From Atractiella rhizophila (lineage: Eukaryota), in assembly GCA_021432655.1 (NCBI GenBank), contig MU271185.1:62001-126000 (forward strand): DNA of 64,000 nt. The letters are read 5' to 3'. A model generated the notes under the pieces. The model made no database searches. It was not told the DNA's origin and saw only the letters and a program-made list of their open reading frames with translations. Position numbers and translations under genes: made by a program. Of this stretch, positions 11,750 to 40,759 are shown in pieces. Every line of letters begins with the position of its first letter. The stretch's first letter is position 1.

Positions 11750-12100
11750 AACCGTTATTGAAAGGACGTCCAACTTCTGGATCCTGTATCATGATCGGAG
11801 TTCAGTTGGCAGTGGTCTCTGAGGTAGCTAGATACTTGCCATCAGAGAGTGTGAACATTGAAGAAGCGGACGGGACCTACGGTTGCTGTGGGCAGTCTCA
11901 TTCATTACTGCTTGAAATGCCATGGCAAGTGGACTTTCTGGAATGTAGATGAGAGACTGCCGAAGGGCTTGAGCTACTTCGTCTGGAGAGAGCCGAGAAA
12001 GCTGAATGGCTGCACTGATGTCTCGATCTGTCGATAACCCTTCACCTATGAGTGACATAACCGTCGTGTAGGATGGCGTCGATGGATCCTGATGAGACAT
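11750..12100 (-). CDS. Orphan small protein A1 (cassette 1)
   Basis: MSHQDPSTPSY...SPLAMAFQAVMNETAHSN, then a phase-1 GTAGGT intron at the same position as in A2 and A3. The last exon may be frameshifted. Confidence 0.55.
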
Positions 12101-13369: not shown

Positions 13370-14114
13370 TCAGGCATGGTAGAGCTGTTCAACTCCTTCG
13401 ATACAAGTGTAAATACTAGAGAAGGTGACAACATTATGAGCGACATCACCACTGTTCCTCTCTGCTAGTGCCTCATAGAATGCCGTCCCCAAAGCATCCA
13501 AGGCTTGCGCTGATGGACCTCCAGGATCAGGGGAGGTGGTGTATTCGAACACATCAACTCCGCCGTCGAGAACCTGGCGACGATGCTGGCAAGCGTTTGA
13601 GCTGACCCCGAACCGAGTATCGAGTATCTGCCTCAAATTTTGAAATGCTTCCGCTTACGAGGCACAATCTCCATGTCAGACAAACTTAGACCTCTTAGGA
13701 CTTGAAGTTTTCTAGACGCCTGCATGAGATATGTGATATGTTAGGGGCTGCGGGCTTATTGCGGCGATGGGTTCCTTAAAAACGTCTAGAGGCTGTGCTG
13801 TGAACGGAACCGAATGAAAGGAGATTGTGAACGAGAAGAACGAAACAGTGATCAATTGATAGAGGTCCCTCGATGTTACGTCTAAGACGCGTAGGACGAA
13901 TTGAGCAAGAGCTGAAAATTCCCCACGTTCCACAAATTTTCTGTAAGCTGTGGGTCTCGGACAGCACGTCTGCAATGATCAGGTTTAGAACGAAATCTTG
14001 CGTACATCGCGGTTGCACGAGGCTCCTTTTCTTGTTGAAAAATCTGGAATTACATAACGCTGCGCCAGTCTTCCACTCTGAGTACATTGGCATGTCGTGA
14101 GGTGAGAGGGACAT
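13370..14114 (-). CDS. Orphan protein B1 (cassette 1)
   Basis: Core DPGGPSAQALDALGTAFYEALAERN, last exon GVEQLYHA*, upstream segment QFVLRVLDV. Homologous to segments at 17.3-18.0 kb and 27.9-28.7 kb. The 5' end is uncertain. Confidence 0.5.
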
Positions 14115-14201: not shown

Positions 14202-14801
14202 ATGCTCCCCCAGCAACCCATAAGAAGGAGATTAATGTCTAGCGGAAAATTGGTAAGTTCCTCTGCTCTCCTCCAATGAGACCTAACGCGAGCGTAGTTT
14301 GTCGACAAAGTCAAAGAAACGTTTTGGGTGAATGGCTTCAGCGCTTTAGGCAAGAAACAGCAACGACTAAAGGAGTCTATTGACGGGACGAGCCATGGGC
14401 ATTCATTCATGTGTAATCCTGATAGCATCTTCGTTGGACGATCGCTGTCAGATTCCACTCTTTTCACCTCATCTGAAAGCCCTCGCCCTTCTCCAACAAT
14501 CTCAGCCAGAGGGGTGCTTCCCCCATCAACCAGCAGTCTGATTTCGAGTTCTCCGCTCACCGCTGCGAAAAGAGAGGCGGACGATGGGATCGCCGATAGC
14601 GAAACCCCGGTGGCGCATAATCTGCGAGTCGATAGCCTGGGAATTTATGTCGAAATCGAGCACAGAGACCACTTTTTTACGTGGGACCAGTTTGAACAAT
14701 TTTTGCTGGACGAAAGAAATACGGCGCACCTTCCAGCCGACGATGTTGTACGTCGCACCGCTGACATTCTGCGAGGTGATTCTCTCCTCCCCACATTGTA
14801 A
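14202..14801 (+). CDS. Orphan protein C1 (cassette 1), 2 exons
   Basis: Exon 1 MLPQQPIRRRLMSSGKL|GTAAGT. Exon 2 FVDKVKETFW...ETPVAHNLRVDSLGIYVEIEHRDHFFTWDQFEQFLLDERNTAHLPADDVVRRTADILRG. Confidence 0.7.
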
Positions 14802-15319
14802 TATCGCTGATGAAAGAAAAAGAGAACAAGAAGGTTTAACACCAACAATGTGTTACAAAATCCACGATGTTACTTGATATCCCAAGACTATCCAAGATTC
14901 ACGCTGTAACTTCTGGCTGACTCTCGGCCCTTGTTGTTTCCTTTCATATTCAAGCGCCCCCCTGGGCGTTGTAACTAGAGCGAATTTGTTCTATGCGTGT
15001 TCATCCGCAAACACAGGGGTCGGAGGGAAAGTCTTAACCGGATCTCAACGTTATAGAAGTATCAAATGCCATGTCCAAAAACTATACAAAAAACGTTGAG
15101 ATGGGTGGACAGGTGCCTCAGTAACAGATCAAGGGCTTATCGAACTGCTTTTGCTGCCGCTGAGCCCACTCTGAGATCTCGTCTGCCCGCGTAAGAGACA
15201 GCAACGAGCTCTTCCTTCCCACCTCACTCAATCACAAAGAACAATTGGATTCTTTTTCTGTTTCTAACCACCTTTGAGTTTATCATACTGTTTATGACTT
15301 GTCGACGGACGGAGAAGAC

Positions 15320-15520
15320 GAGTTGACTGTGATTGTGTGGTCATCGGCCCTACTCAGCATCACTCTTTGCTCTTTCACAGCCTGCACAGTGGACTGGTTA
15401 TTCCAGACTTTCCATTAGAACGGTAATACATTATTTCTCCATATATCCGGAAGATAGCAGAGAGTACCAGCGAAAGTCTGTCAACTCTCCAATGCTCCGA
15501 CGCAGATAAGTTTCAAAGCA
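15320..15520 (-). pseudogene. Remnant of the 3' end of PLP1/TXNDC9 (cassette 1)
   Basis: gtgattgtgtggtcatcggccctactcagcatcact aligns with gtgattgtgcggtcatagatcccattcgtcgtcact at ~32133-32168. It translates KSDAE*GR* versus the intact DSDDEWDL*. Confidence 0.55.
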
Positions 15521-15848
15521 GCTTAGGGAGGCTGCCATCGGTTGCAACGTCCGTACGTCGATTTTGCAACTTGCCTTGATGAACGTTGCTCAGAGCACTT
15601 CAGGCTCCGTTAATCATTATCGCGGGAGGATTTATTCAGTCGCTGAAGCGCTTGAACGGCGTTATCGAGCATTGGAATGAGGTTTTTGTGATACTCACCA
15701 ATGGCGGCTTTATAATTTGCCTTAAAATCATTATGACGATGTCGTCAATGTGCAGGTACTATTGCAGGCTGTTGCACATACAGTTTTCGGGAAAGTGTGG
15801 ATCGACTATCGAGTACGATGAATGAAACATTCCCCATCAGCACAGCAT

Positions 15849-16214
15849 TCAAAAGTCGGTTCTATCTTGGTTCGTGTGATCGAGGTTCAGGGCAGGATTT
15901 GGCTCCTGATCTGTTGCTGTTGAGTTAGCTGGTTCGTCAAAATCATTTAAACAGTGTGCAAGCTTCCAAGATGGCGAGAAAGACATACGATAGCTCTGAG
16001 CGGTCCTGTAGGTCACTTCGTGAATGGCAGCGGCAATTGAGCTTCCAGCAGGGGCACGGTGAAGCGCCTCAGTCAGTAATTCCCAAGGAATAGCCCTGAT
16101 TAGTCGGGTGATGCTTCCATCTATCCCACTCAGCATTTCCTCTGGAATAGGGTCATTTGCTAGTGAAAAGAGAGGCCTGTGGATTAACGTCGGAGTATTC
16201 TGATCTTGACACAT
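15849..16214 (-). CDS. Orphan small protein A2 (cassette 2)
   Basis: MCQDQNTPTL...SSIAAAIHEVTYRTAQSY, a phase-1 GTATGT intron, then last exon PNSTATDQEPNPALNLDHTNQDRTDF*. Confidence 0.6.
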   Translation of the reverse strand: MCQDQNTPTLIHRPLFSLANDPIPEEMLSGIDGSITRLIRAIPWELLTEALHRAPAGSSIAAAIHEVTYRTAQSYRMSFSPSWKLAHCLNDFDEPANSTATDQEPNPALNLDHTNQDRTDF

Positions 16215-17261
16215 TTCTACGTTCCGAGACGGGACACTTCGCTTTACGAACGGTAAAGGTCAGATACTGAGTTGATGACAGAGATTAAACTGCGAAAATC
16301 GGTCGGGGGGAGTCTTCGAGAACCTACGGTGGGGTATTGATTTCTAAAGGTCGTGAGTCCTGCCTAGTTGAATTTGAGTGTTGAGTGGAGTTGCGACTTT
16401 GATCCAAATTATTCATTTTTTAAAGGGTAAGGTCTCAATGTGTCACCTCACGATCAGGCTCGTCTTGCGTTTGTGCGTACCTGCGACCTGTTCAACGACG
16501 GCTTTGAGAACGACCCTATCAAACTTCAATGGAAACTTGCACCATCTTGACACGCTTTGGCGCGGGAATACTTGCTGAGGACTGTTTCCTCATCAACAAC
16601 CAGGCGAGGCGGAGCCATTACCTTCGAAATTACGGCAACTTAGGTTGAAAGGCTCTTCCCAAAACATGTGCACAAGAGTGCAGTGTAGTCCTCCGTGGGA
16701 CCATTCATCATCAAAGCCAAGTTTTTTTCTTTTTTGGTCAGCATTCCAGCTCCAACCGTGAGACGTCAAGTATCACAAACGAATTAGTGCTTACTGCAAA
16801 TTCTTAACCATAAGTGATTATTGCCACAAAGTTCATCTGACATGAAACGGTAATATGTTCGGGTCAAAAATTGGAGGATACTGAATGTCTTCTTGTTCTG
16901 CAGAGAGAAACCAAACCGAAGGTTTCAAGATCGAATGAGAGGACACGCACACACACAGAGCCATCCGAGAGAAATGAGACACGCCGAAACTATTGTGAAG
17001 AGTCAGGAAAGAGAGCAGCCGAAGACGCATGGACGCAGTAATGAGTGACGGTTGAACGGCAGCGGGGTGACAGTTGAATGTCGGAGGGTTGAGCGTCGGA
17101 ACGAAAGAGACAAACAGACTAGTGGAGAAATGGTACAGATGATCGTTAACCCTAGAATCGATGGTAAAAGATCGAACTCACTTGTTTTTTGAGATTTATT
17201 CACAAGATTATTCAGATTTTTTTGATCTTTTATCAAGGAAGTATTGTCTTCATTTTGATGT

Positions 17262-17990
17262 TTCAAGGATGCCCTCCTGACCAAGGGTAAGCGATGGGGC
17301 AGTCAAGGCAAAGCAGCGAACATACCATCGTCCCTTTCAGTAAGAACCCTGTTAAATGCCCTCCCTAAAGCGCTCATGGCTTCCGCAGAAAGACCTCCAG
17401 CATCGGACGCAGTATTAGAAGCGGCGTATGTGAATATCCTGCTCAAGTCCTCCCTTGAGAAGCTAGTGACTATGCCAGCCAGGCTTTGAGCTAGTTTGTA
17501 ACTTGAGACGTCCGTCCCCTGTTGTGTAAAACTTCACTTACGAACTGTCGTAGACAGATTGCTAGTGTTCGCGTTACGCTCGGAGAAAATTCGCCTTCGA
17601 CCGCGACGTTGACGGCGAAGGTTTCTATGATTAGCTCGAGACGCTGGCATGTTTAGGTAACTGTTGACGGCGACTGGTGAATGCTGAGCGCCGAGCACTG
17701 GACTGCGATTGAAACGTGCACACGGAGTTTCAGACTGACGCAGGGGGTACGAGGACAGCAGGACGGTCTAGAGAACCCTCGTTGGTTTAGTTACGTCTGG
17801 TTTTTACCGCAAGGTGATGGAAGTAGGAGCAACTGCAAGCTTCAGGCTCCGGATATGGGCATTACCAAGGCTTGATGATGTTTATACTTTATAAGGAACA
17901 AGAAGAACGAATGGAACGTTGATCGAGGTTCCTTCACACGTCCAGAACGAGTTGAACGAATTGTCGTTCCGCATTTTCGTACGTTCGTTC
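17262..17990 (-). CDS. Orphan protein B2 (cassette 2), possibly damaged
   Basis: Manual translation of ~17325-17518 gives LAGIVTSFSREDLSRIFTYAASNTASDAGGLSAEAMSALGRAFNRVLTERDD|GTATGT. Upstream, QFVQLVLDV is followed by TGA (~17934). Confidence 0.5.
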
Positions 17991-18207
17991 GTGCGTCTCG
18001 TCCCACCTGTGCTACAGTACCAATTGAATCAGTCAGGGCTAAAGTGATTCGGACATTCGGAAGGAGACGAGGAATGAGACGAGGAATGAGACGTCTTCTA
18101 CGTCCGTTTTCGCATACTTAAAACTCCTGCACCATTACCCGAAATCTCTCAAGAAACTACTTCTCAATATCACATTATCACATCTAGGAAGAGAACTGTG
18201 GAAGAAA

Positions 18208-18766
18208 ATGCCAGATGTCAGACCGTGGTACATCCAGCGAGTCCACCAACCATTGAAAAGTGCCATTTTTTTCGGTGGGAAAATATTGGTGTGTTTTCCC
18301 CATCCGCTCTAGCACGCTGATGAGAATGCAGGTACTCGTGCCTTACGCTAAAGTCAAAGAAACGGTGAAGGACATCGCGCCCAGAGGGAGGAAGCAAAGC
18401 CAAACAAAGAATTCGGGAGAGGCGAGTGATGGATATCCGATCACTGCTACGGCTGCCTCCACGTCAGTTTCTAACGCCTACAACGCGACCGACAGCAGCT
18501 CCTTACCCGAGTCTGAAATTAACGTCGACGTCAGCAATCATCCCCCTGCCAGCGATACTCCAGTTGCACGCAATCTGCGTGTTGACGAACGGGGGATTTA
18601 TGTTGATATCGAGGGCCGAGAGCACTTTTTTACTTGGGATCAGTTCGAACAATTTTTGCTTGATCCAAGGAATACAGAGCATCTCCCTGCGGACGACGTT
18701 GTCCGTCGCACCGCCGATATTCTGCGAGGTAAATCTGCTCTCCCTCTTGATAGGACTGTTGGCTGA
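18208..18766 (+). CDS. Orphan protein C2 (cassette 2), 2 exons
   Basis: Exon 1 MPDVRPWYIQRVHQPLKSAIFFGGKIL|GTGTGT. Exon 2 VLVPYAKVKE...DTPVARNLRVDERGIYVDIEGREHFFTWDQFEQFLLDPRNTEHLPADDVVRRTADILRG. Confidence 0.75.
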
Positions 18767-19599
18767 TGTATGGAGCAGAAAATAAGAAAGCCAAGGCGTG
18801 AGCAAAGAAAGTTTGTCTATCGGCAAAGCGCTACACTACTGCCCCAGCTCCCTAAGTACCATATGTGTTCTGCGACTTTCTTATCGCAGAAGATTGTCAT
18901 GCTCCTGTGTACTTTCCATACCTCAGATGATCCACTGAAGTATGCATGGTCCTCATGGGATTCTAGAACCCGAGTTTTGTTCGTCGTTAACGATATTACA
19001 GTAAGTGTGACGCATGAGACAACCCTTCGTTATTTCTGGATATTATGTCAGAGTATTTTAAACAGCATTCTTCTAATAGATATGCGACGACCTCGTAATA
19101 TGAGAGTAAGAAGAAACAAGAAGAGAAATAGATGATGGGGTCAACAAGAATAGTGGGAGTGACGAACGCCGCATCTACAGGTATCGACCACTACGACGAG
19201 CAGTTTGCGATTCATGGAATGGCAGCTGTCTAGAATAAGAGTAAGAATACGTTTCGAGTGCTGAGCTGCAGCACCCTAAAGTAGAGGATGTTGCAACGAA
19301 GCACTCTACGATCAAGGCGACAGATCTGGGAACCATCAGGTGATATCGAATTGACGGTTCTCATCTCCCTGACTTGAACGTAGCGTAGGAAATAAGTAGT
19401 GTCCACCTACTACCATGAAAGCCCTCAACCTCAGCAGCACACCCCACTACACCATTTCGACCTCCTGTCAGGTAACTGCACTGCGTGTCGACCGTTGAGA
19501 AAGTGAGTTGACAAGAGAGTTAACTAGTTAGTCAACGAAACCATTCAGGATAATTATCGCTTTTCCTTATATCCTTCCTCAACCTTGACCTCTCCATTT

Positions 19600-20560
19600 G
19601 TGAGGCAGTCGTCCAGACACCAGGAGACTCCTATACATCGAGGGGGGATGCAAGAACTGAGGGAGAGGGCAGAGAGAAGGAAAGCCGTACCAACCTCTGC
19701 CCAACCTCGAACCTAGAGCTTCGGTCGTAAAGTTATGTTCCCAGGCAATCCCCTCTAACCCCAAGATTCTGCTCCGAAGTTATTCTCAGAGTCCACCATA
19801 TTTACTTCGTGAAAGGGGTAACTGAACAACATACTTATCCTTTGGCACTCCATCGATGAAGGTCGTGACGCATGGCGGCACTTCGATAAAGAGTTTTGTG
19901 ACAAGGAAAGGGGTATGCAGGACGTTGATTTTGAGAAACAGAGTGCGGGCTTGCTTTTGAGCTAGTTTCTGGTCCTGCCTTTTAATAGCTGAGCAACTGA
20001 GCATACGTAGACAAAATGAGGCGTACTCGTAGTGCATATCCACAACATTACACCGCCAAAGATCGTCTTGACAAAAGTGTACGACGCAGAGAGGCGCTTT
20101 TCCTCCTTCCGTCACTCCCGTCAGCAACGTTTACAGACCAGCGTAGGCGAGGAGCAAATTACACAGATCGTTCCTTCTCCTGTTTCTCCTCCTTCATCTC
20201 AAAACGCCGGATGACTCGATGACTCCTCTCCTTCACAGCTTCAGCTTCATCCGTCTCAATCCACCCATGCTTTAAACCATTACATAACCCAATCATCAGA
20301 CGTCTGGATACGAAGTTCGAGGGAATAGTACCCACATCTCGATTCATTGCTCCCGAGTCCACGCTCGCATTCTCCCACCATCATGTGCATGCATATCATA
20401 TGCTTCTTCATCTATTTCCTTTTCCTGCTCTTCTGGAGCCCATGGTCGTCCTTGAGTTGCGGCCGTGAGCATTACTTGGTCGTTCGACATGCTTCGCGCG
20501 CAAGCAATCAGCTATGGTATCTCATTTAAAGTGTGATTTCCAACCATATAGGTAGTCATA
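19600..20560 (-). pseudogene. Degenerate copy of phosducin-like PLP1/TXNDC9 (cassette 2)
   Basis: KAPLCVVHFCQDDLWRCNVVDMH, KLAQKQARTLFLKINVLHTPFLVTKL and NFTTEALGSRL are collinear with the gene at 32145-33123. There are frameshifts near the N-terminus and the first donor site is lost. Confidence 0.75.
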
Positions 20561-20699
20561 TCTCTCTCAAGTTCTTACACATTCTCGAGTTTTGGACAGG
20601 CAGCCTGAACCTGGTCATGTCTCGTCATCCTTATCCTTATATATAAAGCACGACGGGTTTTGACCATGACTCACACATGTACTTTTGAGCCCTTATATC

Positions 20700-20970
20700 A
20701 CCGCCCACAACAGTCCTTTCAAAATTCTGAGCATACAGCAAGAATACGCGTGTCGGCGCCCTTCGAACCGTATACAGCAAAGCCCATTTGAAAGACGAAA
20801 AAAAAATTGTTTACCCCAACTGACTCATGTGACTTCTTGGTCCACAACAACACCCTCAAAATTCTGAGCATACCACCAGAATACGCGTATCAGCGCCTTT
20901 CCAACCATATACAATAAAGCTTATTTAAAGGACAAAAAATAGTTGTTTTCCATGACTGAGTCAAGTGACC
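20700..20970. repeat. Two tandem ~135-bp subterminal repeats in the Helitron left end (third copy at ~24325-24458)
   Basis: ccacaaca...aattctgag...agaatacgcgt..c.gcgcc.tt..aacc.t...ctga.tca.gtgac recurs at ~20706, ~20842 and ~24329. Confidence 0.85.
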
Positions 20971-21039
20971 GACTTCGGCACTTTGACAAAAATTTCCTTA
21001 CCTACTCAAATAAGGCAACAAGGTACAGAGTTTGCGCGA

Positions 21040-21104
21040 TGGTGTAGTTGGTGTATGGTTGGGTAGTTGAGTCTTGACTGTAGTGTTGGTGCGGGTTCGA
21101 TTCT
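21040..21104 (+). promoter_or_regulatory. tRNA-type RNA polymerase III internal promoter (A box + B box) inside the Helitron
   Basis: TGGTGTAGTTGG at 21040-21051 fits the A-box consensus. GGTTCGATTCT at 21094-21104 fits the B-box consensus. Spacing is tRNA-like. Confidence 0.5.
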
Positions 21105-21434
21105 CAGTCATGTCACATTTTGTCACTGCCAAATCCTATTGTGTTTGCAAACTGCGTGCCCGCAATTTCTAATTCCTACAGAGCTTTCTGAGACTTCTCA
21201 TCTCATGTCATGTGCCAAAAACTGTTCTTTGCCAACTAGGAGGGAAAGTGAGCAAGCATTCATGCAAGTGAAACAGTTTCTTTCACCATGAATATGCTTC
21301 CTAACAATCTACCATAGTATCCCTCAGCCTGTTAGCATCAAATCAAATCAAGCAAAAAAAGCATAGGTGTGTGGACTCTGGCTTATATATTCTTCACTCA
21401 TATCATTTTGTTATGTGCAGCAAGCTACACTCTC

Positions 21435-23999
21435 ATGCCACGTGCAATTCAGAGAAATCAAACAAGAAATCGAGAGCGTCGATCCAAACGGCATCAATGT
21501 CTGCAGCAGGAGGCACCACTATACCAGGGTCGACCTGTAAGAGAGAGGCAACGCCCTGCACATTTTAATCCTACTCCACCTACTCCATCTCAACATGAGA
21601 CAAGATCAACTAGGGCTCCACGTCAGTGTCAGCAGCACTGTCGAAGCTCTTCACTATCTATATCTTCACGACCAGCTCGACGACATTGGAGACAGCATTC
21701 ACCCTCCGCTAAGGAGTACAGTGAAGAAGAAACCCGATCATACCCATCCTCTCCTGATCCTGATGGTGTGGACAGTGATGAGGATAGGGCATTAATCCCA
21801 TTGTTGCGAGGCGAAATAAGGCAACATCACTATCCTGCATTCAACTACTCACCTGATATGGATCTTGAGGCACACCACCTCTCTACTTGGGGATTACTTT
21901 GTACACATTGCAAAGCCTTTGATTGGATGGAAGAGAAGATCGTTAACAGCCCACAACGAAATCCAAAGTTTACATTGTGCTTCTCCACAGCAAGGTGCTG
22001 CTACCTGTTCCTCTGCCTCCACTTGAAGAGCTACGAAAGCTTTTTACACATGACAATACAACAGGTAAGTATTTCTATTCAATTTTTTTGCATATACATA
22101 TCTGAGAGGAACAATCATTATAGAGTCAATGGCATTTCGAGAGCATATCAGGATATTCAATAATGCTTTTGCATTTACATCCTTAGGCGTCCGCCACGTA
22201 TCAATTCCTGGACATGGTCCCTACTCCTTCAAAATTCAGGGAGAGCTCTGTCACCTTATTGGCACTCTTTTACCACAACAAGAAGGGTGTGAAACATTTG
22301 CACAGGTCTACATTACAGATTCAGCTGTACAGACTGAACAAAGAGTTGGCAACACTTCAATATCACTGAATCGTAGGACGCTTGAAGACCTTCAGGCTAT
22401 ACTCTTCCATGTCAACCCATATCCCAGGATCTACAAATTTGTAAAAGAAAGAATGGAACAGGATCCCACTACAACACTACATCTTCGCACAGTCGCCCCA
22501 CGAGATAGGGACCCAAGACGCTACAACATTCCTGTAGCCAGTGAAGTTGCTGTAGTGAGGTAGGAGATGGTAACAGAGAAGAATATGGAGTGGCCAGAGA
22601 TATTGTCATCCAGCTCAGGGCAACCAGGACCGGTAGCAACTTACAGCATGTGAATGAGCTCAACTCAAATTATCTTCCACTTTGTTTTCCTCTTCTGTTT
22701 CCATATGGGGACCAAGGATGGCATCCGCAGATTCCGTATCGAGACCTGCCTGCAGATCTTCCTCCTCGCGAGCGAGAGCACTTCAATGATGACGGCATGC
22801 AAGTTGGTAATTCTGGGGTTCGACAATGTGTCAAGCCAAATGGAGTTCTATTCTTACATGTCGCATCAACGAAATGATATATTCTCACTCCCTCTCTACG
22901 GTGGTCGGCTACTGCAAGAAATGGTAGTCGATGCTTATGCTCAAATTGAGGCGAATCGACTCCGCTATCTGCTGTTCAATCAAGTCTATTCTTCGAGCCG
23001 AGTGTATCAAGGTCTTACGGATGCCCTTGCAGAAGGCTATTCTTCAGAAGATATCGGGAGGCGGACTATATTACCATCAAGTTTCACTGGCAGTCCATGT
23101 TCAATGAATCAGCTGTTCCAGGATGCAATGACTATAGTTGGTGCCAAAGGACCCCCAAATATCTTTACAACCTTCACTTGCAACCCACACTGGGCGGAGA
23201 TCACGGAAGCCGTCCTACCAGGACAAAAAACCAGAGGATCGACCAGATTTGGTTTCAAGGGTTTTTCGACTGAAGGCTCTGGAGTACATCAAGGATTTAG
23301 TGGTACGACAGATCTTTGAAAGGGTTATCAGATATGTCTGGGTCATTGAATGTCAGAAGATAGGTCTACCACATGCCCACATCATGTGGATGGCATCAAC
23401 GATCACTTGATTCAGTGGTTCGAATCCATAGGAGATCGGGTATATTATAGTACAGATCAAATTATAGATGACGAGGGAGATCTCAGAAATCGCTTCTCTG
23501 TCGAGTACCTGAATACCCTGGAGATCTCTGTATTCCCTCCGCATTGTTTACACCTCAAGACCGGTGTACCCATCATTCTTCTGCGAAATCTCAATCCATC
23601 TGCTGGCCTGTGCAACGGCACGCGGCTCATTGTCACCAGCTTCTCCGACGAGTCATCGAAGCAACCATCATTACAGGTACACACAGTGGCGAATCAGTTC
23701 TCATTCCTTGAATTGGCATTGACAGTGCAGTATCAAACCAGCTTCCTTTTCAATTCCGGTGCTTTTAATTCCCTGTGCGCTTAGCGTTTGCCTTAACTCT
23801 GAATAAAGTGCAAGGACAATCTGTTGGACATGTGGGTTTGTACTTAGAGTCTTCTCCTTTCTCTCATGGGCAGCTTTATGTTGGTCTTTCACGGGTTTCA
23901 AACGCAAACAATTTACGAGTATTGGTCAAAACAAAGCAAGGAGAAGAAAACAAGCAAACAGATAATGTAGTTTACAATGAAGTGTTACTCAATCACTGA
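21435..23999 (+). pseudogene. Helitron RepHel (HUH endonuclease + PIF1 helicase), disrupted
   Basis: Motifs are spread over several frames (ORFs 21369-22163, 22129-22563, 22590-22877, 22654-23319, 23138-23410, 23350-23784, 23775-23999). The HUH motif is joined almost directly to the helicase C-terminus at ~23390. Confidence 0.85.
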
Positions 24000-24257
24000 T
24001 CATCTCTCAGCATGTTCCTAACAGTATAGTCAAAAGCTGAAGTGGTTCTCCGAGGTACGAGGAGACCACTCAGCTTTCATTGTTTTTTGAAGACAGTAGA
24101 GTACATATGGTGAGTCTGTGCTCGCCGAAGGCGAGGCCCCACGCAGTGGCTGCCAGAGGCAAGAGCTCCACGCAGTGGCTGCCGGAGGCTGGGGTCCAAG
24201 GGGCGAAGCCCCTGGCGGGGGGGGGATGCCATAGGGACGAGGGCACTGACACACTTG

Positions 24258-24605
24258 TCCTTATATAAAAAGCACGACGGGTTTTGACCATGACTCACAC
24301 ATGTACTTTTGAGCCCTTATATCACCGCCCACAACAACCCTTTCAGAATTCTGAGTAGACCGCCAGAATACGCGTGTCGGCGCCTTTCGAACCGTGTGCA
24401 GCAAAGACTATTTGAAACACGAAAAAAAATGTTTTCACGACTGAGTCAGGTGACTTCTCCGCGAGAGATGAGGGCCACTCAGCTTGTGCCAGATAAACAT
24501 CCGATCGGAACGTCGGAAGCGAACAGCTTAGTTGCAGTTGCAGACTCTCACACCACCTCTCCCAACTGCACAATACGAGGGACTAGAAGCAGCCGCCCTG
24601 GCTAG
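24258..24605 (+). mobile_element. Short non-autonomous Helitron-like unit (second copy of the left end plus the CTAG terminus)
   Basis: TCCTTATATAAAAAGCACGACGGGTTTTGACCATGACTCACACATGTAC... is near-identical to 20634 onward for ~80 bp and clearly homologous for ~200 bp. It ends at CTAG|T. Confidence 0.75.
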
Positions 24606-24749
24606 TGCCATAAAATAACATACCGCTACCATGTATGGCGAGACGTCATGAGTTCGACTCCAAAGACGGTGAACAGTTTCCCTGGCTAGCCCAAACTTTG
24701 GATAGAGGAGGGTGGAGTGGTTTCTCGTGGGTCGTCAGGGGCTGAGAGG

Positions 24750-25960
24750 AGAGAGCGAAATACAATCGTTACCAAATTGTACGCTGACTTGAATGGCGAT
24801 TGTGTGCCACATCCGCGCCAGCTCTATTCTGGCTTTCTCATCCTCAAATGATGGCTTCGTACATGTAGGGAATGAAGTTCTGTGTAGGGGATGAAATCCT
24901 GAGCACTCTCCTTAGTAGTATACTCATCGATGTCTCAGGACAGGTCAGCAGCAGAGGAAGTTTTGTTGGAAGGAGTGTGCTAGCCGACGATTTTCGTGCA
25001 GTTTCTCTGATTTCGTGGCAGATGCCTCTACCCGTAAAGCATCGAATTTGGTGCATTGCAGCATTACGTGTTGAATGGTTTCAATCACAGAATATGTTTG
25101 GTTATTGGTGGGCGTAAAGCATTCTCCCCCATCGAACCGCGCGCGTGTCGTTCGTCCCCAGGGAGATACCTCTTATTTGGATTGCACTTTAGCAGCATCC
25201 GCAGAGAGCGAGTAAAGATAAGGGGTAGGCAACGGGATCGAATCCTGACTAGCATGGGTCCCTTTTCGCTCTCCTCCCCTCGTCTAACTCTCGACGTTCC
25301 GCCGTGCTTGGTTGGTGAGGGATTTGGCCAAACTGTCTCCAAATAGAGTACGATCATTCATTAGCAGTCCATACTTATCAGCGAACAAAGAGGGGGAACT
25401 GAAGAGTTGTTCTTTTGTGCGTCGCTTTTCCTAGTTGATGATTCAAGTGAGGAGCTTCATCCTCCCCTTCCGTGTGTGCGTTGACATGGTGGACGCCGGC
25501 ACCGTATTGTTGGCAAATCGGGAAAGACGTCCAACACCCATCGGTATGATGATCGTGCTAGGTAGTATTCGAGAGTTGCCGTTTACTGCCTTCAATCTCT
25601 CAACCAGCTTGTCGAAATTGAGATGGGGGATATAGATAGTCACACGCGTGGAACTTCCTCCTTGTAGTTTCCCTGGGAGCGCGATGACGATAGCTCCTTG
25701 CTGCGTTGTGGACGAGCTTGAGGCAAGGCGAAAAGCAGACTGAGGTACACCGGACGTGCTGGTGGTGACAACACTCGTCACTCGGAAGGTTCCCTGATCA
25801 AACCGCAGGCTCAGCTCCTCAACCTGGTGCAACTCTCGTCATACCGTTCCACATGGAAATTGCCCTAACGTGTAGACAGAAGATCCCACAACAACGCTTG
25901 GTAATTGATGATACGGGACTGCAGCGAGGGAAAGTAGTACGGATTGTAGCCAGCATTTGG
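24750..25960 (-). mobile_element. Degenerate 3' fragment of a non-LTR retrotransposon (LINE ORF2 C-terminus)
   Basis: Minus-strand translation gives MLVRIRSRCLPL (similar to LxxLRTGHxPL) and C...IETIQHVMLQCTKFDALR, matching the ETxxHxxxxCxxF/YxxxR zinc knuckle of LINE ORF2. Multiple stops and frameshifts. Confidence 0.5.
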
Positions 25961-26498
25961 ATTGCGATAAACAGAAGAAAGCAATAGTCATTATCTAATC
26001 AGAGTGACCAGAACGATGTAGAGAACACTTTCTCATCATGCGGCGTAAGCGCGACGGACATGGCTGGACCGCATCAGTAATAGTAATCCAAAATATCTGA
26101 CACTGAAGCTGTTTATTAATCCTCCACTTGGAGAGTCTGAAGCTTAATCGCAATACTTTTAATACACAATCGTGACGGTGACAGTGCAGTAGATACAAAT
26201 TTCGTGAAAACATCGATACGGTAATGCGTCTCGTTTTGCAAGCAAACTTGCGCAGATCTGCTGAATTTCAGACACAACAGCGCATCAAATGATGCTGTGG
26301 ATTGTGAAACAAAATTTAAAAGCAACCTGTTTCCAAATTCAAAGAGGTTTACAGACAAAACTACTCATTTGGTCGGTCTGATCTCGTTAGAAATGAGGTT
26401 GGAAAGAAAGGACCTCGATTAAGGTGAGGAGAGGGTCATGGCTCGACATTTGATCTCTCTGTCCATTCATATAGTCAACCTTGGTCTTCTGTGCGAAT

Positions 26499-26860
26499 TT
26501 AAAGGATGTAGAGATAGTACCAACATTGGTAAGGCGTGTCTGGATCGTTCGGCTGATCACTGTGTGGTTTTGCGGTGTGAGTAGGAGGAAGAGGATCATT
26601 GGCTGGCTCCCGGCATTTTTAGTCAGTATGCAAGGAGGTGAGAAAGACTCACAATTTTTGTTGGCGTCCTCGATAGTTAATGCCCGTACGGCAGTGGCGA
26701 TTGGCCTTCCAGCGGCGTATGTGAGGGTAAGCTGAAGGATCTGAGCTAGAGGAAGTGACCCCATGATGGCATTGTCATCATAGCCTCTGAGTCTGAATTG
26801 ACCGTTGATCGGTGTAGGGAGCGTTCTGTAGGCTGGCCTAGTATCGTGACCTTGACCCAT
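26499..26860 (-). CDS. Orphan small protein A3 (cassette 3)
   Basis: MGQGHDTRPAY...LTLTYAAGRPIATAVRALTIEDANKN, then a phase-1 GTGAGT intron at the position homologous to A1/A2. Confidence 0.5.
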
Positions 26861-27940
26861 TCTGTCTGTTGAATGTCCTGAACCTTCAGCATGTCAGTGC
26901 CTGGGATAAAGACGATCATAAACGTCCTACGAAAATGAAATGGGAGATACGAGCGAGAGATTGGTATTTCTGAGATAATGAGATCTTTAAAAAATACGCG
27001 GATTGAAACGTATGTGAAGTTTGTGAACGATAGTGAATAGCTAACTGATGGACAAAGGTGTGAGTGAACGTTTCAAAAGCTGGATTTACTACTAATCCAA
27101 GCCAAAAAAAAAACTAATTCTGAAATAGCAGGGTCAGGATGCAACGTGCGGTTGATGGGAAGTCGTGAATTCGTGGGATTAAGTACATAAGAAGGGGTTT
27201 ACCTTGAGGACGTGAGTTACGTCTCATGCAATGTTCGTGTGTATGTCGCAGCTTACAAGTTGAACGAGAGCTTGTGGGTAAAGAATACGCAACCCATGTC
27301 CATGAATGAACGAACGGACCACTGAAGCCCGGCATGATGATTTGACGCACCTAATGTACGCAACAGCGCATTACTAACTTTGTGACAATGAGAACTATTT
27401 GTCTGCGACATCGTGGCATGTCACTAGTGACTAGGTGCACGAAATGACTGCAGTGTCTTCGAAGGAAAAACTGGGCAACTCACAACCAACTGAAACAGAT
27501 CAGATAAGCCGATGTATCGAAATCTGTCTCAGAGTTGACCAATTCACAGGAGTAAAGAGGCTAGCTTTAAGACTGTCTGTACTTTGCCTGCTTTCCACAA
27601 ATGCCACAAACTAATAAATTTGTGCTGTAATTACTATGTACGGTTTTGTTCATGGAACGAGAGGGAACTACTGTGACGATATAAAACAAAGGTAACCCAA
27701 GGTAACAATAAACTCTGAGGAGAACTGGCTGATGATTGAAGATTGAACGTAATTGATTAATTGACTAGTTGACGAACTAAATTTGTGTTGAGGGGGCGTC
27801 GGAACCAAGTGCAAAACGGACTGTGGAGAGGTCATTAATTTTGAAAGGGCCAGGAAGCAATTAAACTCACATCTTTTTGACATGAGGTACATATTTTTCG
27901 ATTTTTGTGTCAATTTTTGCCAAGAAAATAGTACGTTGGT

Positions 27941-28676
27941 TTAAGCTTCAGGGACAAGATGTTCAATGTCTTGACAAACTTATCAGCGCCTAAGCAAATG
28001 AACCTGAACCACTCACCATACTAGTTCCTTTCCGCATTAGCTTGATTGAATGCCGCTCCCAAATCGCTCATCGCCTGTGCTGAAGGACCCTCAGGATTGG
28101 AGGAGGCGGCAAATACGAGGCACCTAATCAACTCTCCAGTCGATAGGGCAGTGACTGGCCGATTTCGACGGTGAGAAATCCCCATCAGAATAGCTTGAAC
28201 GACTTACAAGACGCGGCGGAGTGATTGCTTGCGTTTACGTTACGCTCAGATAACGCTTGAGGTCCGCGAACTCGACGTCGCCTACTCTGGCTTCTGCCCT
28301 GACGTCTGCTGTTCTGCATGGTTATCCGCCAAACGTGCTTGGGAAAATGTGGACACGTAATTTCAGGCTATTTGAAGAACTCGGAGTGTGTCTCGACGCG
28401 AGAGGGCTTATATAGCAGAAAACAAGAAGTACGAAGGTGTTCGACATATACGTCAAAGACGAGCCGACTTTGGTGGTTCCACATATGAGTGGCCTTTGTG
28501 CGACTCGTTCGCAACGTGAGAAGCTGATCACATACTCCCATATTCCGGACCGGACGGTGGACACCATCAACGTTTTTTGCGAGTCCAATGATCTGTCTGT
28601 CGTTGCAGATTGGTTCATTTGATTGGGGTGGGATCAGCAATGGCATAGTTGCAAGTGGGTTGGCGGAATCAGGCAA
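27941..28676 (-). CDS. Orphan protein B3 (cassette 3), possibly truncated by a nonsense codon
   Basis: Manual translation of ~28022-28165 gives VTALSTGELIRCLVFAASSNPEGPSAQAMSDLGAAFNQANAERN*Y|GTGAGT. Last exon DIEHLVPEA* (compare B1 GVEQLYHA*). Upstream RLVFDV. Confidence 0.5.
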
Positions 28677-30593
28677 TATTTAGAAAGCGGCAAGCGTTCG
28701 GGACATACGATTGTTCTCAGCTGCCCAGTTCACCATCTCTTGACGAACATCCGGCTGGAGCAAGCTGAAACGCGTCTGCTCATAGTTTCATAGGAATGGC
28801 CCAGGTTCCTCGCCAATTGCGCCACTGGTAAAGAGAGAACCAAAGAGAACGGTCTGGTGGCTCGGTCTGCAAAGGCATCGATATTGGCATATTCATGTTT
28901 CTTGTCAAGGCGATAAATTCAAGTAGAGGTCAGTATCCGAAATTATGAACATAAGCATCGTCTGGTTAAGTATTCTGCGGAAGCGGATTTGCAAGATACC
29001 TCAGTTGATACTTTTGATTCCTGCAAGTTGAGAGCCAAAGCTGTAGAAATGGATGGAGCGTATCCGTCACCAGACAAATTCATAATTTTAACGCCATCAG
29101 ACCTTTCTGATTGCGGAAAGCCATGAGAACAAGGTATTTATCCAAGATTGGATGAGGAAGAAGTGAGGCTCGTCTGGGTTTGTGCATACCCGCCGCCTCG
29201 TTATCAATGAATAAGAGTAGGTTTGAGTTGTGGATACCGTAATCCTCGTCCTTTTGGGAACGGAAAATTGAAACTTGACCACTTTCACGCGCTGCACGCA
29301 CTCCATTCTCCATGGAATGTAAGGTACTCATTTAGTCCCTTCGAAACTACAATGCGATCAGGACGGACTGAGGGATTGAAACGAAGTTTTTCAATGAGAA
29401 ATTCCAGGTCCCTCCACGATTTCCAGCCGTCTGGCATACTTGAAGCATGGACATTCCACCATCTTAATTATTTATAATCGGGGCTAAGTACTGCTGTGCG
29501 GTGTGCAGGAGTTGAGGATGCACAATGACATTGGGAGCAAACCTTATAAATCTAAAACTCTTGACGTAACATATTTCTCCGGAAGTGAATATTGTTCGCA
29601 TGCGACATGGACCTTTTGGGGCAAGAGCTGAATGTCTTCTGTATCCATCCGATAGAGGGTAGGCGGTGTGAAAACGATAGTGACGAGAGAGAGCATTCGA
29701 ATGATGAACCGAAGGCAGGATGCAGTCCGAGTGACATCGAACGTACGTTGGATATTGGATATTGGACCTGGAACCCCAGTTGAATGAACAGCGAAGAAGA
29801 AATATGAACGAGGGAATGAGATGGCAACAGACTGGTGTTGGCCGTGGAAAGGACTTGTTCCGCAAATTCGGCTTTCTTTTAGAAATTTCCTCAAAGATAT
29901 TGTCCGTTGAACACAGTCCATGCCCCTTGAACCATACACTGACTCACGTAAGGGTTCGGGTCGCAAAACACTTTTTTTGACCTCTCCAGAATAAAAATCT
30001 TCGCGGATTCAGAAAGCTCAAGCATATGAAATAAGATGGTAATAATCATTTCATTTTAACGTGCTACTGAGGGAGGTATGAACGGTGCGTTTTCTGACTC
30101 ATGCCAAGAATGGATGGGCTTTTAGACGTAAGGAAAGCTTTTGACGACGTGAAAGAGTAGCACATATCATAGTTTGTTTCTGTAGCCGGAGCCCCTAAAG
30201 CGCTTCGTTGCGCCAGATGCTGTGGACGGGTTACTTACATCCCTCTTAGGGATAAAACTCATGGTTTTCCGGACTAAAGAAATTGGCTGCATTGCTAGAT
30301 TGGGAGGTCATGTTCAGGACGTTGATGCGATTCGAAAGATAGTACGTACGGCCCCTCGTTTTCAGAAAGCAAGCTCAAAGATAAGAACTAGGAAACTGAT
30401 ATACAAGAAGCACGAATTCGAGTAATGAATGATGATGTTCTCCGAGACGTGATCAATGTTGTTGAACGTCTTTCTAATATGTGCTGCTTTCGCAATCACG
30501 TGAATTTGTGTGTAATATGGGTTCCGAACCAAACGACGCTCTGAGACGTGGTAGACGGCAAACAAGGGGTAGAAGGTCGCGAACAGACCAAAG

Positions 30594-31379
30594 ATGCATT
30601 CAGTTCCGCAGTATAAATTCAGCCGATACCCATCCTGGTGTCCATCATCCCCTGCACACGCCGCTGTATTCATCCACATCCTATCTGGGATTCAACCAGA
30701 GCCTTTCAAGAAAGCGCCGTATAACGATGCCTCTCCACATACCTCGTCGGTACCGCATCCAAGTACCCTTGATAAACTCTGTCACCTTTACAGTAACAAC
30801 ACTTGTGCGTCCTCCGTCTTCCCTTCAACCAGCTAATGGCAGGTGCAGGTGGTCCAACCTTACATTAAAGTGAAAGAAGCAGAGTGGCTGAAAGGCATTG
30901 CGACAATTGTGATGAAGCGTAAAGGAGGAGCAGGCACGAGCGAGAGTGCCTCCGTTATTGAGTCTAGGCACAAAGTCTTTGCCACCTCATGGGCAGCAGA
31001 TTCCTATCTCTTCACTTCATCAGACTGTTCTCGTCCTTCTCCGAAAATCTCAACCGGGACGGTTCCTTGCAACACGACCACCGAAAAGTTCATGTCATCC
31101 TGTCCAACGCCATCTGAATGCGATACCAGTCATAGCGATGTCGACCATAACGGCAACAAGAGCGAAACTCCCATTGCGCGCAATCTCCGAGTTGATAACT
31201 CGGGCATTTACGTCGACGTCGAGAGCCGAGAGCATTTTTTTACTTGGGCCCAGTTCGAGCAGTTTTTGCTGGACGAAAACAATACTGCGCATCTCCCCTT
31301 GGATGATGTTGTCCGTCGCACCGCCGACATTCTGCGAGGTGAATCTTTCTCTCTCCGTCATTTTGGGACAGTTGGCTGA
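30594..31379 (+). CDS. Orphan protein C3 (cassette 3), 2 exons
   Basis: Exon 1 ...IQPEPFKK...LDKL. Exon 2 VVQPYIKVKE...ETPIARNLRVDNSGIYVDVESREHFFTWAQFEQFLLDENNTAHLPLDDVVRRTADILRG. The donor position is uncertain. Confidence 0.7.
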
Positions 31380-32144
31380 TGCAAGAAGTAGAGAACAAAA
31401 AGGCTCAGGCATGATTGAAGAAATTGTTCCCACTGTTGTAACGTGGACAAGATATATCCGTACTGTAAGAATTGTATACCTTCCTTTCTGGTCTATGCAG
31501 AATCCCTATGCTCCTATATTACTTCCATACGCTAGAACGCGGTTTGAAGAATGGTTCTTATCGGACTCTTTCAAGACCAAATCTGTTTCTTTATCATATG
31601 CAGCGCGGGAATGCGCGTGGGCTCCTATCTCTCGAAACTAAAATTGATATCTTTTCCGAATTGACTGCTAAAATGGAGAAAAGTGAGGTCCGAGTGATAT
31701 GCTATGGGACTTAAAGAAACATGAGGCTGGTCGACCCAGCAGCAAGAACGCGGGAGATCGACAATCGCCGCATCCATTTGTCATGGACGCCAAGAGCAGC
31801 TTGCACTCAATGGAACTGGTAGTTGTACAATTAAGTATACGGGGTACCTTGCAGCAAAGCCATTAGCAGAAGAGATGGAGTGCGGAAACAAAATAACCAG
31901 GATCAAGATGTCCGGGATGAGAATCTTCGAGCCAACGAAGTGGCATCGAAATCGGCTCCAAGATTCTCATCTCCGCGACCAGAATGTGGCATAGGAGACA
32001 GGCAGTGAGGCACTGACTTCGCTCAATCACGCACACCCAATGGCATGATTTTTCTGCTTCTAACCTCCTCTCAATGCACTTGCGCTTGATTCCTTTCAAC
32101 GGATGGAGCAGACGAGTAGACGAAAAGCTTGAGTGATTGTGCGG

Positions 32145-33123
32145 TCATAGATCCCATTCGTCGTCACTGTCTGGGTTCTTCACATCCTTCTTCAATGTAG
32201 ACCTCTCTACTTGCAAAACACCTGACCATCATCCACGTTTATCAGATCCTCGTGATGGCGGAATGAAGATGTAGGTAGAGCGGAAGAAAGGAAGTCGCAC
32301 CAGCCTCTGCCAACCTCCACTCCAAGGCCTCAGTAGTAAAATTGTCTCCGCCCGGCAATCCCTCAAAACCTACAATTCTGCAGCATTGTCAGCGTCCATT
32401 ATCAACGTCCACATTCATAGCACCGTGAGAAGGGAGCGGGAACGGCCTACCGATCCTTTGACACTCCATCGATGAAAATCATCACGCATGGAAGCACTTG
32501 AATGGAGAGTTTGGTGACAAGGAAGGGGGAATTCAGCACGTTGATTTTGAGGAACAGGGTACGGAAGTGTTTTTGAGCCAGTTTCTAGTCCACCTTTTCT
32601 GTTAGGAGGATTCATCATGGATAGGAAAGGAGTCCCACTTGGAGATGCATGTCCACGATTTTACACCGCTTAAAATCGTCGTGATAAAAGTGGACGACGC
32701 AAAGTGGCGCTTTTCTTCCTTCCATCGCTGTCGTCAGCCTTGTTCACACATCAATAGCGACGACGAAGGACGTACACAGATCGTTCCATCACCTCTTTCT
32801 CCTCTTTTATCTCGAGGTATTGCCCATGACTTCCCTCCTTCATCTCTCTTAGTCGCCCCATCCTTTAAATCATCGACACAATGATCAGTCGTCGTTAAAC
32901 GCGGTTGGAGATAAGAAACTCACTCTCGATTCATTGCTTCGAGACGACGTTCACGTTCTCCTGCCATATCATATGCGCCTTCATCTATTTCCCTCTCCAA
33001 CTCCTCGAGCAGCCCATCATCGTCCTCTTGAGTTGCTGCCGTGAGAATCGCTTGGTCCTTGGATATGCTTCGCGCACGATCGGCCACCGCATCAGTTGAA
33101 TGAGCGAACACCTACCTAGCCAT
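32145..33123 (-). CDS. PLP1: Phosducin-like thioredoxin-fold protein (Plp1/TXNDC9 type), multi-exon, apparently intact
   Basis: ATG at 33123. EDDDGLLEELERE...RERRLEAM; CVVHFYHDDFKRCKIVDMHLQ; KLAQKHFRTLFLKINVLNSPFLVTKLSIQVLPCV; GFEGLPGGDNFTTEALEWRL; ends DSDDEWDL*. Confidence 0.85.
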
Positions 33124-33297
33124 CTCTTTCTCCTCTCACTTCCTACGCAATGTGCTCACTTTCCTCGTCCTGGTCGCCCAACAATAAGAGTGTGTCCACT
33201 GCGTTCTTGTGAAAGTCAACATCCGGCCGGACTTTCCAGGGCATTCCGCTTCGTGTCACGCGTCTGTGTAAAACCATAAAACGACTCCCCGCGATCG

Positions 33298-36200
33298 ATG
33301 AGAGCTTTCCCCAGGCTCTCTCAGATCCACCACCACCTCCACACCTCCAACTTCTCCAGCGTCAAGCTCACGAGAACAGGGATCACTCCAGCGCTGCAAC
33401 AGCGACTCAGATATCGAACAATATCCTCAAAGATGGTCAACCAAGCCCAATACTTCGCAGACCTTGAGCCACCCTTCTGCTCCTTGGCGGTCAAGAAGAG
33501 TTTTGACGGATTGACGAAGGAGGAAAAGCTTTACGCGCATTGGATTTGTTAGTCCACCTTTACCCTCTAGATCCTTTCTTTCCATAAGATACTCATTTAT
33601 GCTTCCTTGTGGACAGCTAAAGCGAGCTGGGCTGGTGCACGTGTGATAATGGTCTGGTTCTCTCTCTTGCGGCATTCCTCTTGAGAAGGAGCTAAATGAA
33701 TATGGCGAATAGGAGCAATGGGCTCCTCACGCGAACTCCCTATACGACTTCCTGATCTTGCTCTTCACCGATCCTTCTACTGGCACCATCTTCGCAGACC
33801 TGGAGGAGGTCAGAACGAAGGCAGGTGTGGAGCAAGATGAGTTCAAATATTTCGTTGGATACACCGCGCAGGTTGGTCCTCACCTTCTTTGTTGTTCACG
33901 AGGCACGTACTGACAACGACGTGTGGTTGATAGTCCCTTTCCAACCTCGTTAATTACAAAAATTTTGGCAACACCAAATTCATTCCTCGCAGTTCACCCT
34001 CCACAATCGACAAACTTATCTCCTCCCATCCTGCAAGCTCCAAACTTTCCGAATACTGGCCGAAGGTATTCATCTTCTCCTCTGAATTGTCGTTTTCTCA
34101 ATTTGATATTCTCAAACCCAGCTCAAGGAAGCAATTTACTCCCTTGATCCAGAACCCATTCTTCAAATCGGAAAACCATCGTCTGGACACCTCTCCAACC
34201 TTTATCCTGACTCTCCAAGCATCAGTGATGCAGAAGTGGAACAAGTCTCCGAGCTGATGCGAAAAGAGGGAATCGAGCCACAGAACACTCGGTACGCTCA
34301 TCGTGCTCTCTTCTGCTCTTCGCCTCCTTTCGGTGGTTTTGGGATAAATAATGACTGACTGAGCCGTTCCAGGTTGAGGAAGGAGGGGAACGGAAAATTC
34401 ACTCTTCTGATCGCAAGTTCAGAGGAGGGAGAACACGAGAAGAGCCCTCTGAAAGGAGATGGGGTGGAAGTGAAGATTCAACTCGGTTCGTATTTTCCTC
34501 TACCTCACCTCACTCGGGTGACACTGATGATTTGAGATGAGCAGGAGACTACAAGGACGCAATGGCAAAGGTAGTCTCCTCCCTCGAGGAAGCGGTAAAA
34601 TGGGCTCGTGCGTCTTCTCCCTCCATCCACCGAAAATTCCAATTTATCCCAACTCACAGAGGATGAGAACCGCGCCGGGATGCTGAAGGACTACATCACC
34701 TCCTTCCGTACCGGTTCCGTCATCGCCCATCGTGAGGGATCGAAGAAATGGGTTAAGGATGTGGGGCCAGTCGTCGAGAGCTACATTGGGTTTATCGAGG
34801 ATTATTTGGACCCTTATGGCTCAAGGGCGGAGTGGGAAGGTTTTGTGGCTGTCGTTGACGTATGCATTACTCTCTCTTCTGAGTTGTGAGTTAGACGGAG
34901 ACTGATTGGCTTCTTGACTTACCGATTGGATTGGGTTCGGTGGAAATAGAAAGAGCAAAGCAAGCTCTTCAAGCAGATGGTCGATCAGGCACCGGAGTTG
35001 ATTCAGGTTCTTCCTTGGGGGAAGGATTTTGAAGTAGACGAATTCAAAAAGCCAGACTTTACCTCGTTGGAGATTCTCTCTTTCGCTACCGGTGGAATAC
35101 CAGCTGGAATCAGTTCGTTTCCTCCTTTCGCTGAAAGAAGGCTTTGTGACGAAAGATGTGATGCCTCCCAGATATCCCCAACTACCACGACATCCGTGAG
35201 AATTTCGGATTCAAGAACGTCTCCCTCGGGAACGTGATTGGCGCCTCTGCACCAACCGAACCCAATACTTTCATTGCTCCTGAAGATGATGCCATTTATA
35301 CTCAGTGGAAGAAGAAGTCGTGGGCCATGCAGGTGGCTTGCCACGAGCTTCTGGGTAAGTAGCTTACGTCCATCTCACTCTACTTGTCTACTTCCGGAAA
35401 CTCATGTCGATTGTACACAGGCCATGGAACTGGAAAGCTCCTGACAGAGGACAGGGACGGAAACCTCAACTTCGACAAGGAGAAGGTCATCAATCCAATC
35501 ACCAAAGGCAAGGTCAAGACTTGGTACAAGCCAGGCGAAACTTGGAGCACTTTCGGTGGAGAGATCAGCTCGAGCTTTGAAGAGTGCCGAGCGGAGGTAG
35601 TTGCTCTTTTCCGTTCGTCACTCAACCCCTACCCACAGCCCAACAAGGGAGCTGACCTCAGTTCCGTCTGGCAGTGGCGAACGATAAACGTATCGCGAAG
35701 ATCTTTGGTGTCGAGACGGAGGAAGACGTGGATCTCATGCAGTATACCACCTTTTTAGAGATGTGCCGTGCTGGTGTCCGAGGCTTGGAGTGGTTCGACC
35801 CGAAGACGAAGAAACATGGGCAGGCGCACATGCAGGCCAGATGCGGTATCTTTGTTCGTCAACCCTCCAACCTTTCAACGGGTGCAGGCTAATGGAGCCG
35901 GATGCAGAAATGGCTCCACTCTAAGGACATTGTCACTCTAGAGGAAAAGCGGGATGAAACCGGAACCCTTGTAGATGCTCACATCAAGATCGATAGAGAA
36001 AACCTGAAGAAGAACGGTCAAAAAGTCGCTGGCGATCTCCTGCTCCTTCTTGGAATCTACAAGTCGACAGCAGACCCCACGGCGAAGAGCTTCTACCATG
36101 ATCTGACCACTCCTCATCAGAAATGGCAGACAGAGCTGAGGGACCTTGTTGTACGTCCAATTCCTTGCCCCTCTAATTTTTTGGCTGCGATTTAAATGCT

Positions 36201-40701: not shown

Positions 40702-40759
40702 ACAAATGTCCGGTTTTTTTGCATCAATTAACTGAAATACAAGGCGCAATTTTGAAATG

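Follow-up and report, generated by a model that had tools for sequence, protein, structure and literature searches.

A small, strongly conserved protein domain in three tandem gene copies of Atractiella rhizophila, with a possible role in protein binding

In basidiomycetes the HD1 and HD2 mating-type genes form divergently transcribed pairs, which are repeated in tandem and combine N-terminal regions that vary with a domain that is conserved. The somA and somB loci of Coprinopsis are of this kind too, and according to the available text on them (10.64898/2026.06.24.733965) pairs at the somB locus are arranged head to head. A comparable layout is found in the root-dwelling fungus Atractiella rhizophila, in a 64,000-nucleotide stretch of intron-rich fungal DNA (assembly GCA_021432655.1, contig MU271185.1, positions 62,001 to 126,000, forward strand; the window in the following). 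Here a block of three small genes, A, B and C, is present three times. In all three units gene C lies on the plus strand and is divergent from a small minus-strand gene B, with gene A behind B, and the C proteins consist of a variable N-terminal part and a conserved C-terminal domain, which is the subject of this report. The likeness to the HD pairs and to somB is one of gene orientation only: no homeodomain was found by Pfam in the C proteins or the B cores, and, in contrast to somA/somB as that text describes them, A, B and C have no NACHT, kinase or leucine-rich repeat (LRR) match, nor a HET-type one, and the proteins have 80-200 aa. The domain is real, expressed, strongly selected and undescribed; its function we infer.

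The C genes have three exons each, separated by GT-AG introns of 43-53 nt (Table 1), and the spliced models agree residue for residue with the annotated A. rhizophila proteins. The three domain copies lie where a preliminary description of the window had placed them, all on the same strand. Splicing was examined in public sequence contigs from four of the eight runs listed (X1, X2, X6 and X8), of which X1 and X6 are root metatranscriptomes by record, while X8 is of unrecorded kind and behaves as cDNA. Intron 1 of C2 is skipped in contigs of three of the four runs and intron 2 in all four; intron 1 of C1 is skipped in contigs of X1. C3 is covered by X8 contigs only, and there are no C3 joints among the joints listed. 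Intron 1 is in phase 0 in all three genes, which also have a KVKE motif in common. The proteins end in ILR-ENKK(AKA/AQA/V), the ENKK tail being encoded by the short third exon. The consensus of the preliminary description, which closed with a G after ILR, has to be corrected here, as this G and the genomic letters behind it are the start of intron 2. At 18258-18344 one X8 contig (depth 62) has variant letters corresponding to the joined exons of P0004, a paralogue outside the window which thus appears to be transcribed.

The amino acid identity of the domain is 81-84% in pairwise comparison, with 44 of the 58 residues invariant across the three copies; at the DNA level the copies are 77-78% identical in a stretch of 194 nt. 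In a six-frame profile search only these three copies were found in the window at E <= 3e-28, with no further match below E 1.2. Equal identity at third codon positions had been named beforehand as the pattern expected of recent conversion. What is seen is the opposite, 88-93% identity at positions 1-2 and only 50-60% at position 3, and therefore purifying selection, not recent conversion, explains the conservation of the window copies. Long runs of invariant residues are indeed maintained in spite of silent DNA changes, which are present in 27 of the 43 degenerate invariant columns. The synonymous divergence (dS) of the domain is 1.50, 0.96 and 0.80 in the three comparisons and the non-synonymous divergence (dN) 0.10-0.13, giving a dN/dS of 0.07-0.16 (Fisher P <= 2.2e-6); M49 peptidase duplicates, used as a control, have 85% identity, dS 1.82 and dN/dS 0.04 over 130 codons. 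The arms encoded by exon 2 are 74-107 aa long, contain 24-27% Ser+Thr and are 28-37% identical. They are thus divergent, Ser/Thr-rich and variable in length as previously described, but not wholly unrelated, given the phase-0 intron and the KVKE motif.

Thirteen proteins were found to contain the domain, 11 from A. rhizophila and two others. Six of them, all from A. rhizophila and spread over three contigs, were found among 8,000 scored candidates in the first search; we refer to these as C-type. A HMMER search of 1.84 billion representatives gave 10 matches, one of which, the 1481-aa pyrin-repeat protein P0007, was excluded from the member count as an artefact since its score was summed over 13 stretches. 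Four A. rhizophila proteins and the two others were the further HMMER matches (E 6e-6 to 2e-4), and a cluster look-up added P0014. A nine-member profile found no new member in 7,999 longer candidates, a search that is circular for its own members. All six C-type proteins have the domain at their C terminus. In P0009, P0010 and P0012, which have tails of 133-200 residues, it lies close to the N terminus, and it makes up nearly all of P0013 (77 aa). In other words, it is a movable module. It always lies beside low-complexity sequence or short tails. In nine diverse members the residues G, W, L, T, L, P, D, A and L are invariant, with no catalytic-looking set among them, whereas 24 of the 46 invariant columns of the C-type proteins are polar or charged.

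Pattern scans gave no credible relative in metagenome DNA (0 of 333 matches to the pattern in one scan, 0 of 185 in a second) or in viral contigs (0 of 181). In prokaryote genomes one of 101 pattern matches passed; this 612-aa protein reads as a sensor histidine kinase and has only the strand part of the domain, without the helical motif, so it was rejected as a chance match. No published account of these genes was found in a search that was thin on subscription journals and supplements. The family is lineage-restricted and undescribed.

Two AlphaFold2 models predict three strands, a helix, a short helix with a loop and a last helix of 16 residues. Their predicted local distance difference test (pLDDT) values are 82 and 83 and their predicted template modelling (pTM) scores 0.60 and 0.59, and the elements are nearly the same in both. 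Two confident models, together with relatives in which the domain is N-terminal or stands alone, bear out the earlier characterization of the domain as compact. A strong Pfam hit would have contradicted the preliminary description; the domain profile scans gave no significant Pfam family, and nothing above the cutoff in PHROGs and NCBIfam. Foldseek gave no match at E <= 0.001 in PDB and BFVD. VIA-align found no chain at Z >= 5 among 48,161 representatives, nor among a set of 996; its best Z was 3.2, on a helical fragment, and all rows are lower than its stated chance level, a typical best Z of 7-8. No fold can be assigned from these rows, and the missing structural match does not make the fold a new one. 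ESM Atlas had no usable match for P0010 and chance-level rows for P0013. In a sequence search of the PDB the best row was MntR (E 0.06), the others being weaker. This similarity to MntR/DtxR (1on1; NF003025) is a local match of 25-28 residues with E 0.006 in NCBIfam and a score of 16.7 against a cutoff of 138; it was confined to two of the nine members and vanished with the wider profile. Moreover, the metal-binding segment of MntR is helical, whereas the matched segment is beta in our models. We rejected the candidate, and the domain does not appear to belong to any family tested.

With moderate confidence, judging from sequence and models, we suggest that the domain, joined to arms that are disordered and variable, acts inside the cell as a non-catalytic module for protein binding or self-association. 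Its 58-65 residues would form an independently folding, lineage-restricted domain, predicted to begin with a three-stranded beta-meander, continue with a helix and a P-x-N-T-x-x-L-P loop and close with the long last helix. This domain would dock or self-associate inside the cell without a catalytic role. The nine family-wide invariants look structural, while the 24 polar or charged columns suggest a constrained surface. Because the C-type subfamily fixes these 24 residues, the partner may be unchanging between paralogues, either a host protein that is itself conserved or a second chain that carries the domain. The disordered Ser/Thr-rich arms, which are N- or C-terminal depending on the member, would supply variable regulation or targeting. 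The three copies themselves would go back to an old tandem duplication of the whole A-B-C block. As A and B diverge but the domain stays fixed, any cognate partner would more likely touch the arm than the domain. The net charge of the domain in the C-type proteins is -5 to -6, and this acidity argues against nucleic-acid binding. The preliminary description had also spoken of an effector. In the sense of a secreted protein this finds no support, as the 19-residue hydropathy of the six C-type proteins, our proxy for secretion or membrane insertion, never exceeds 1.3, no signal-peptide-like or membrane window is present by this measure, and there are just 0-4 Cys.

Several observations weigh against this reading. 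The pTM of the models is only 0.59-0.60, from alignments of 6-9 sequences, the ESM Atlas model of P0013 is poor (pTM 0.35), and the E values of the distant members given above are modest. Nor is the location clear-cut. In four of the six C-type proteins the first 17-39 residues are basic and include no acidic ones, a feature of mitochondrial presequences. Counting in favour of the reading, P0010 and P0012 have in common a basic tail with R-x-E-P-Y, which fits the proline-tyrosine nuclear localization signal (PY-NLS) pattern as defined in the available text of 10.1101/2025.07.20.665762, and there is a weak Pfam match to HnRNP_M_NLS (E 0.075); the same text gives 3,076 raw matches of the PY pattern in Arabidopsis, so it is common, and the pattern is not present in the tails of the genes of the window. 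Expressed, small enough to purify, constrained like a housekeeping enzyme and lacking a significant match among the representative solved chains, the domain would be well suited to structure determination and could found a new Pfam family. The surprise is limited, as orphan families are to be expected in a lineage so poorly sampled.

A different possibility is a PC4/PUR-like or chromo/chromo-shadow-like fold that has diverged very far and, as a dimer, binds nucleic acid or chromatin proteins. We consider this unlikely. In HP1-type adaptors a disordered arm ends in a small domain, a layout like that of the C proteins, which have no second folded domain. Weak structural rows do recur for both groups. 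The chromo and chromo-shadow domains (SUV39H1 3mts, Rhino 4u68, HP1 9baq) likewise have three strands and C-terminal helices, with Z 2.6-3.0 and a root mean square deviation (rmsd) of 5.5-6.8 A over 48-51 aligned residues, for one model and not among the rows listed for the other; the corresponding Pfam profiles gave no match at E <= 10 for six or nine members. The type II PC4-like proteins (PC4, Magnaporthe Sub1 5zg9/4bhm, Pur-alpha repeat III 5fgo/8chw) similarly have a small beta-meander followed by a helix, and their rows, which come mainly from the second model, are weak (Z 2.0-2.5, rmsd 3.8-7.3 A, 44-49 aligned, model residues 1-49). The PY-NLS-like motif of the two relatives would also fit. 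But all rows are under the chance level, the top families differ between the two models, and the PC4/PUR families gave no Pfam match at E <= 10 either. Moreover, PC4-like units have a four-stranded beta-beta-beta-beta-alpha repeat topology in the accessible text of PMC7549692, whereas three strands are predicted here, and the C domain is acidic and adds a conserved loop and a second helix. This helix-loop-helix, the most conserved part, lies mostly outside the PC4 alignments.

The other two genes of the block are orphans without a Pfam match (Table 1). The start distances of the divergent B and C genes are 477, 558 and 2408 nt. The B cores are homologous (0 of 2000 shuffles reached the score), about 50% identical and evolve with a dN/dS of 0.26-0.30; no B homologues were found in a low-sensitivity search with a 52-aa query. 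In B1, contigs of X2 and X6, which come from different studies, show a 20-letter gap with zero mismatches within 13509-13679, the region in which the frame departs from B2 and B3. The gap may reflect a different allele, a fault in the assembly or an intron of very small size. In B2 a loose end at 17490 (X1) backs intron 1, the 3' intron 17119-17181 is skipped in X8 and X1, and intron 2 is predicted. The A genes are 25-29% alike, and the number of shuffles reaching the score was 0 of 2000 for A1-A3, 15 for A2-A3 and 182 for A1-A2. A common intron phase had suggested that A and B are paralogues; this was not supported (hhalign probability 2%, 115-1364 of 2000 shuffles). A2 and B2 appear to be unannotated in public records, because the accessions of C1 and C2 are consecutive.

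Table 1. Coordinates of the A, B and C genes, the conserved domain and the adjoining thioredoxin-fold genes in the window
Feature	Position	Strand	Remarks
Gene C1	14202..14839; exons 14202-14252, 14298-14775, 14823-14839	+	181 aa, = KAH8930237.1 (P0002)
Gene C2	18208..18801; exons 18208-18288, 18332-18728, 18779-18801	+	166 aa, = KAH8930238.1 (P0003)
Gene C3	30727..31414; exons 30727-30804, 30849-31338, 31392-31414	+	196 aa, = KAH8930241.1 (P0001)
Conserved domain, copy 1	14601-14774	+	58 codons; ENKKV next, on exon 3
Conserved domain, copy 2	18554-18727	+	domain codons of C2
Conserved domain, copy 3	31164-31337	+	domain codons of C3
Gene B1	13451..13725	-	head-to-head with C1; small orphan; frame departs from B2/B3 near 13555 in the assembly
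Gene B2	17263..17650	-	head-to-head with C2; ~95 aa, Arg-rich N terminus, helical-looking core
Gene B3	28021..28319	-	divergent from C3, 2.4 kb away; TAG at 28023 just before shared second donor
Gene A1, main exon	11881..12100	-	orphan; X8 contig stops at donor 11881
Gene A2, main exon	15989..16214	-	orphan, several upstream introns; introns 15929-15988 and 16267-16327 skipped in X8
Gene A3, main exon	26653..26860	-	orphan
Decayed fourth A-like segment	28701..28827	-	between B3 and C3; nhmmer A profile E 7e-4, shared donor region
Thioredoxin-fold gene behind C2	19675..20499	-	70% identical to 32285-33075; own PDB search empty
Thioredoxin-fold gene behind C3	32285..33075	-	weak thioredoxin matches, E 0.007-0.018

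The arrangement raises the possibility that A-B-C is a self/non-self or poison-antidote cassette, with the C domain as the effector and the arm pairing with the facing B or with A. This too is improbable, and so is the fuller version in which it would be an undescribed Atractiellomycetes system with a new fold, where the fixed domain serves as effector or for dimerization under the control of the facing gene's small protein, acting through the arm, and C1- and C2-like genes outside the window are deep alleles under balancing selection. The head-to-head orientation in all units, which recalls the somB locus, fits such a cassette, as do the B cores, which are constrained yet diverge faster than the domain. 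Two C-type genes whose accessions are nearly adjacent lie on another contig, and one of them is C1-like (58% identity). X8 contains diverged contigs that differ at many positions over A3, over B3 and over the 3' flank of C2, so additional copies or a second haplotype exist. If B and C did pair specifically, this would be a compact recognition system in Pucciniomycotina without homeodomains or NLR proteins. On the other hand, Pfam gave no match to the recognition-type domains listed at the outset, C1 and C3 are intact although B1 seems to be frameshifted and the reading frame of B3 stops early, and the domain also occurs in proteins of different architecture. Generic tandem duplication, moreover, explains the layout. 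The spacing of the thioredoxin-fold pair, 12.6 kb, equals that of C2 and C3, i.e. this housekeeping gene, which we take to be phosducin-like, was duplicated together with C, and the adjoining peptidase was triplicated. Because of these two facts ordinary tandem duplication explains the repetition: the block sits in a zone of old tandem duplication and no special mechanism is needed.

It is still less probable that we are dealing with a gene, accessory or domesticated, of some mobile element or virus which carried it between contigs. The eleven annotated proteins are spread over at least seven contigs, as told apart by length, of a single species, and there is a Helitron remnant in the DNA between units 2 and 3. 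This remnant contains no C copy, however, and the C copies were duplicated together with host genes. They have two conserved introns, there is no transposase or viral match, and no terminal repeats bounding the units are among the largest repeat families listed.

Two features of the 3' end of the domain count against selection as the whole account. The last 12 codons have a proportion of synonymous differences (pS) of 0.29-0.39 against 0.56-0.74 elsewhere, and the likeness of intron 2 is matched by only 0-1 of 300 shuffles; splice-related constraint or old conversion at this end is therefore possible. The domains of P0003, P0004 and P0006 are also 97% identical on different contigs, with the arm of P0006 unlike the rest, in a comparison at the protein level only. 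That gene conversion or recent copying rather than protein-level selection accounts for the similarity is very improbable, and for the three window copies largely refuted, by the silent changes described above, by a 3' deficit that falls short of significance (5 of 12 columns, compared with 22 of 31, P 0.09), by longest identical DNA runs of 14-20 nt, no longer than under codon permutation and thus without a long conversion tract, and by a dS that resembles that of the arms and the B cores.

Around the block a number of minor observations were made. No Rfam match was found in 11000-33500. A single X8 contig, 15743-18661, covers A2, B2 and C2, with minus-strand introns and a probable GC-AG intron near 16488-16540; it reflects either overlapping untranslated regions or a shared B2-A2 transcript. 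The segment 29610-30276 between B3 and C3 has an X8 depth of 41 and loose ends at 30117 in X8 and X2, and is probably a short repeated element. A direct repeat some 113 nt long, diverged to 77%, lies downstream of A1 at 11364-11652. The Helitron remnant, 20630-24458, is broken (Helitron_like_N, Pif1 2B) and flanked by a 208-nt direct repeat with 89% identity; judging from the high depth of the X8 contigs at its ends, the element may be present in many copies.

The peptidase genes, of family M49 (dipeptidyl-peptidase III type), are three tandem copies in 33280-44159, the first two being 75% identical. A 2.4-kb block, 39371-41764, is 95.5% identical to 41776-44159 and repeats an orphan open reading frame (ORF; 41093-41650 and 43482-44045) with a weak AsqO_C match. 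The window also contains an NPC1/NCR1-type sterol transporter gene (46009-50018, minus strand), an APH-family phosphotransferase gene (253-1958) and an intronless ORF of 534 aa (8902-10506) with weak LRR-like matches, which is presumably F-box-like.

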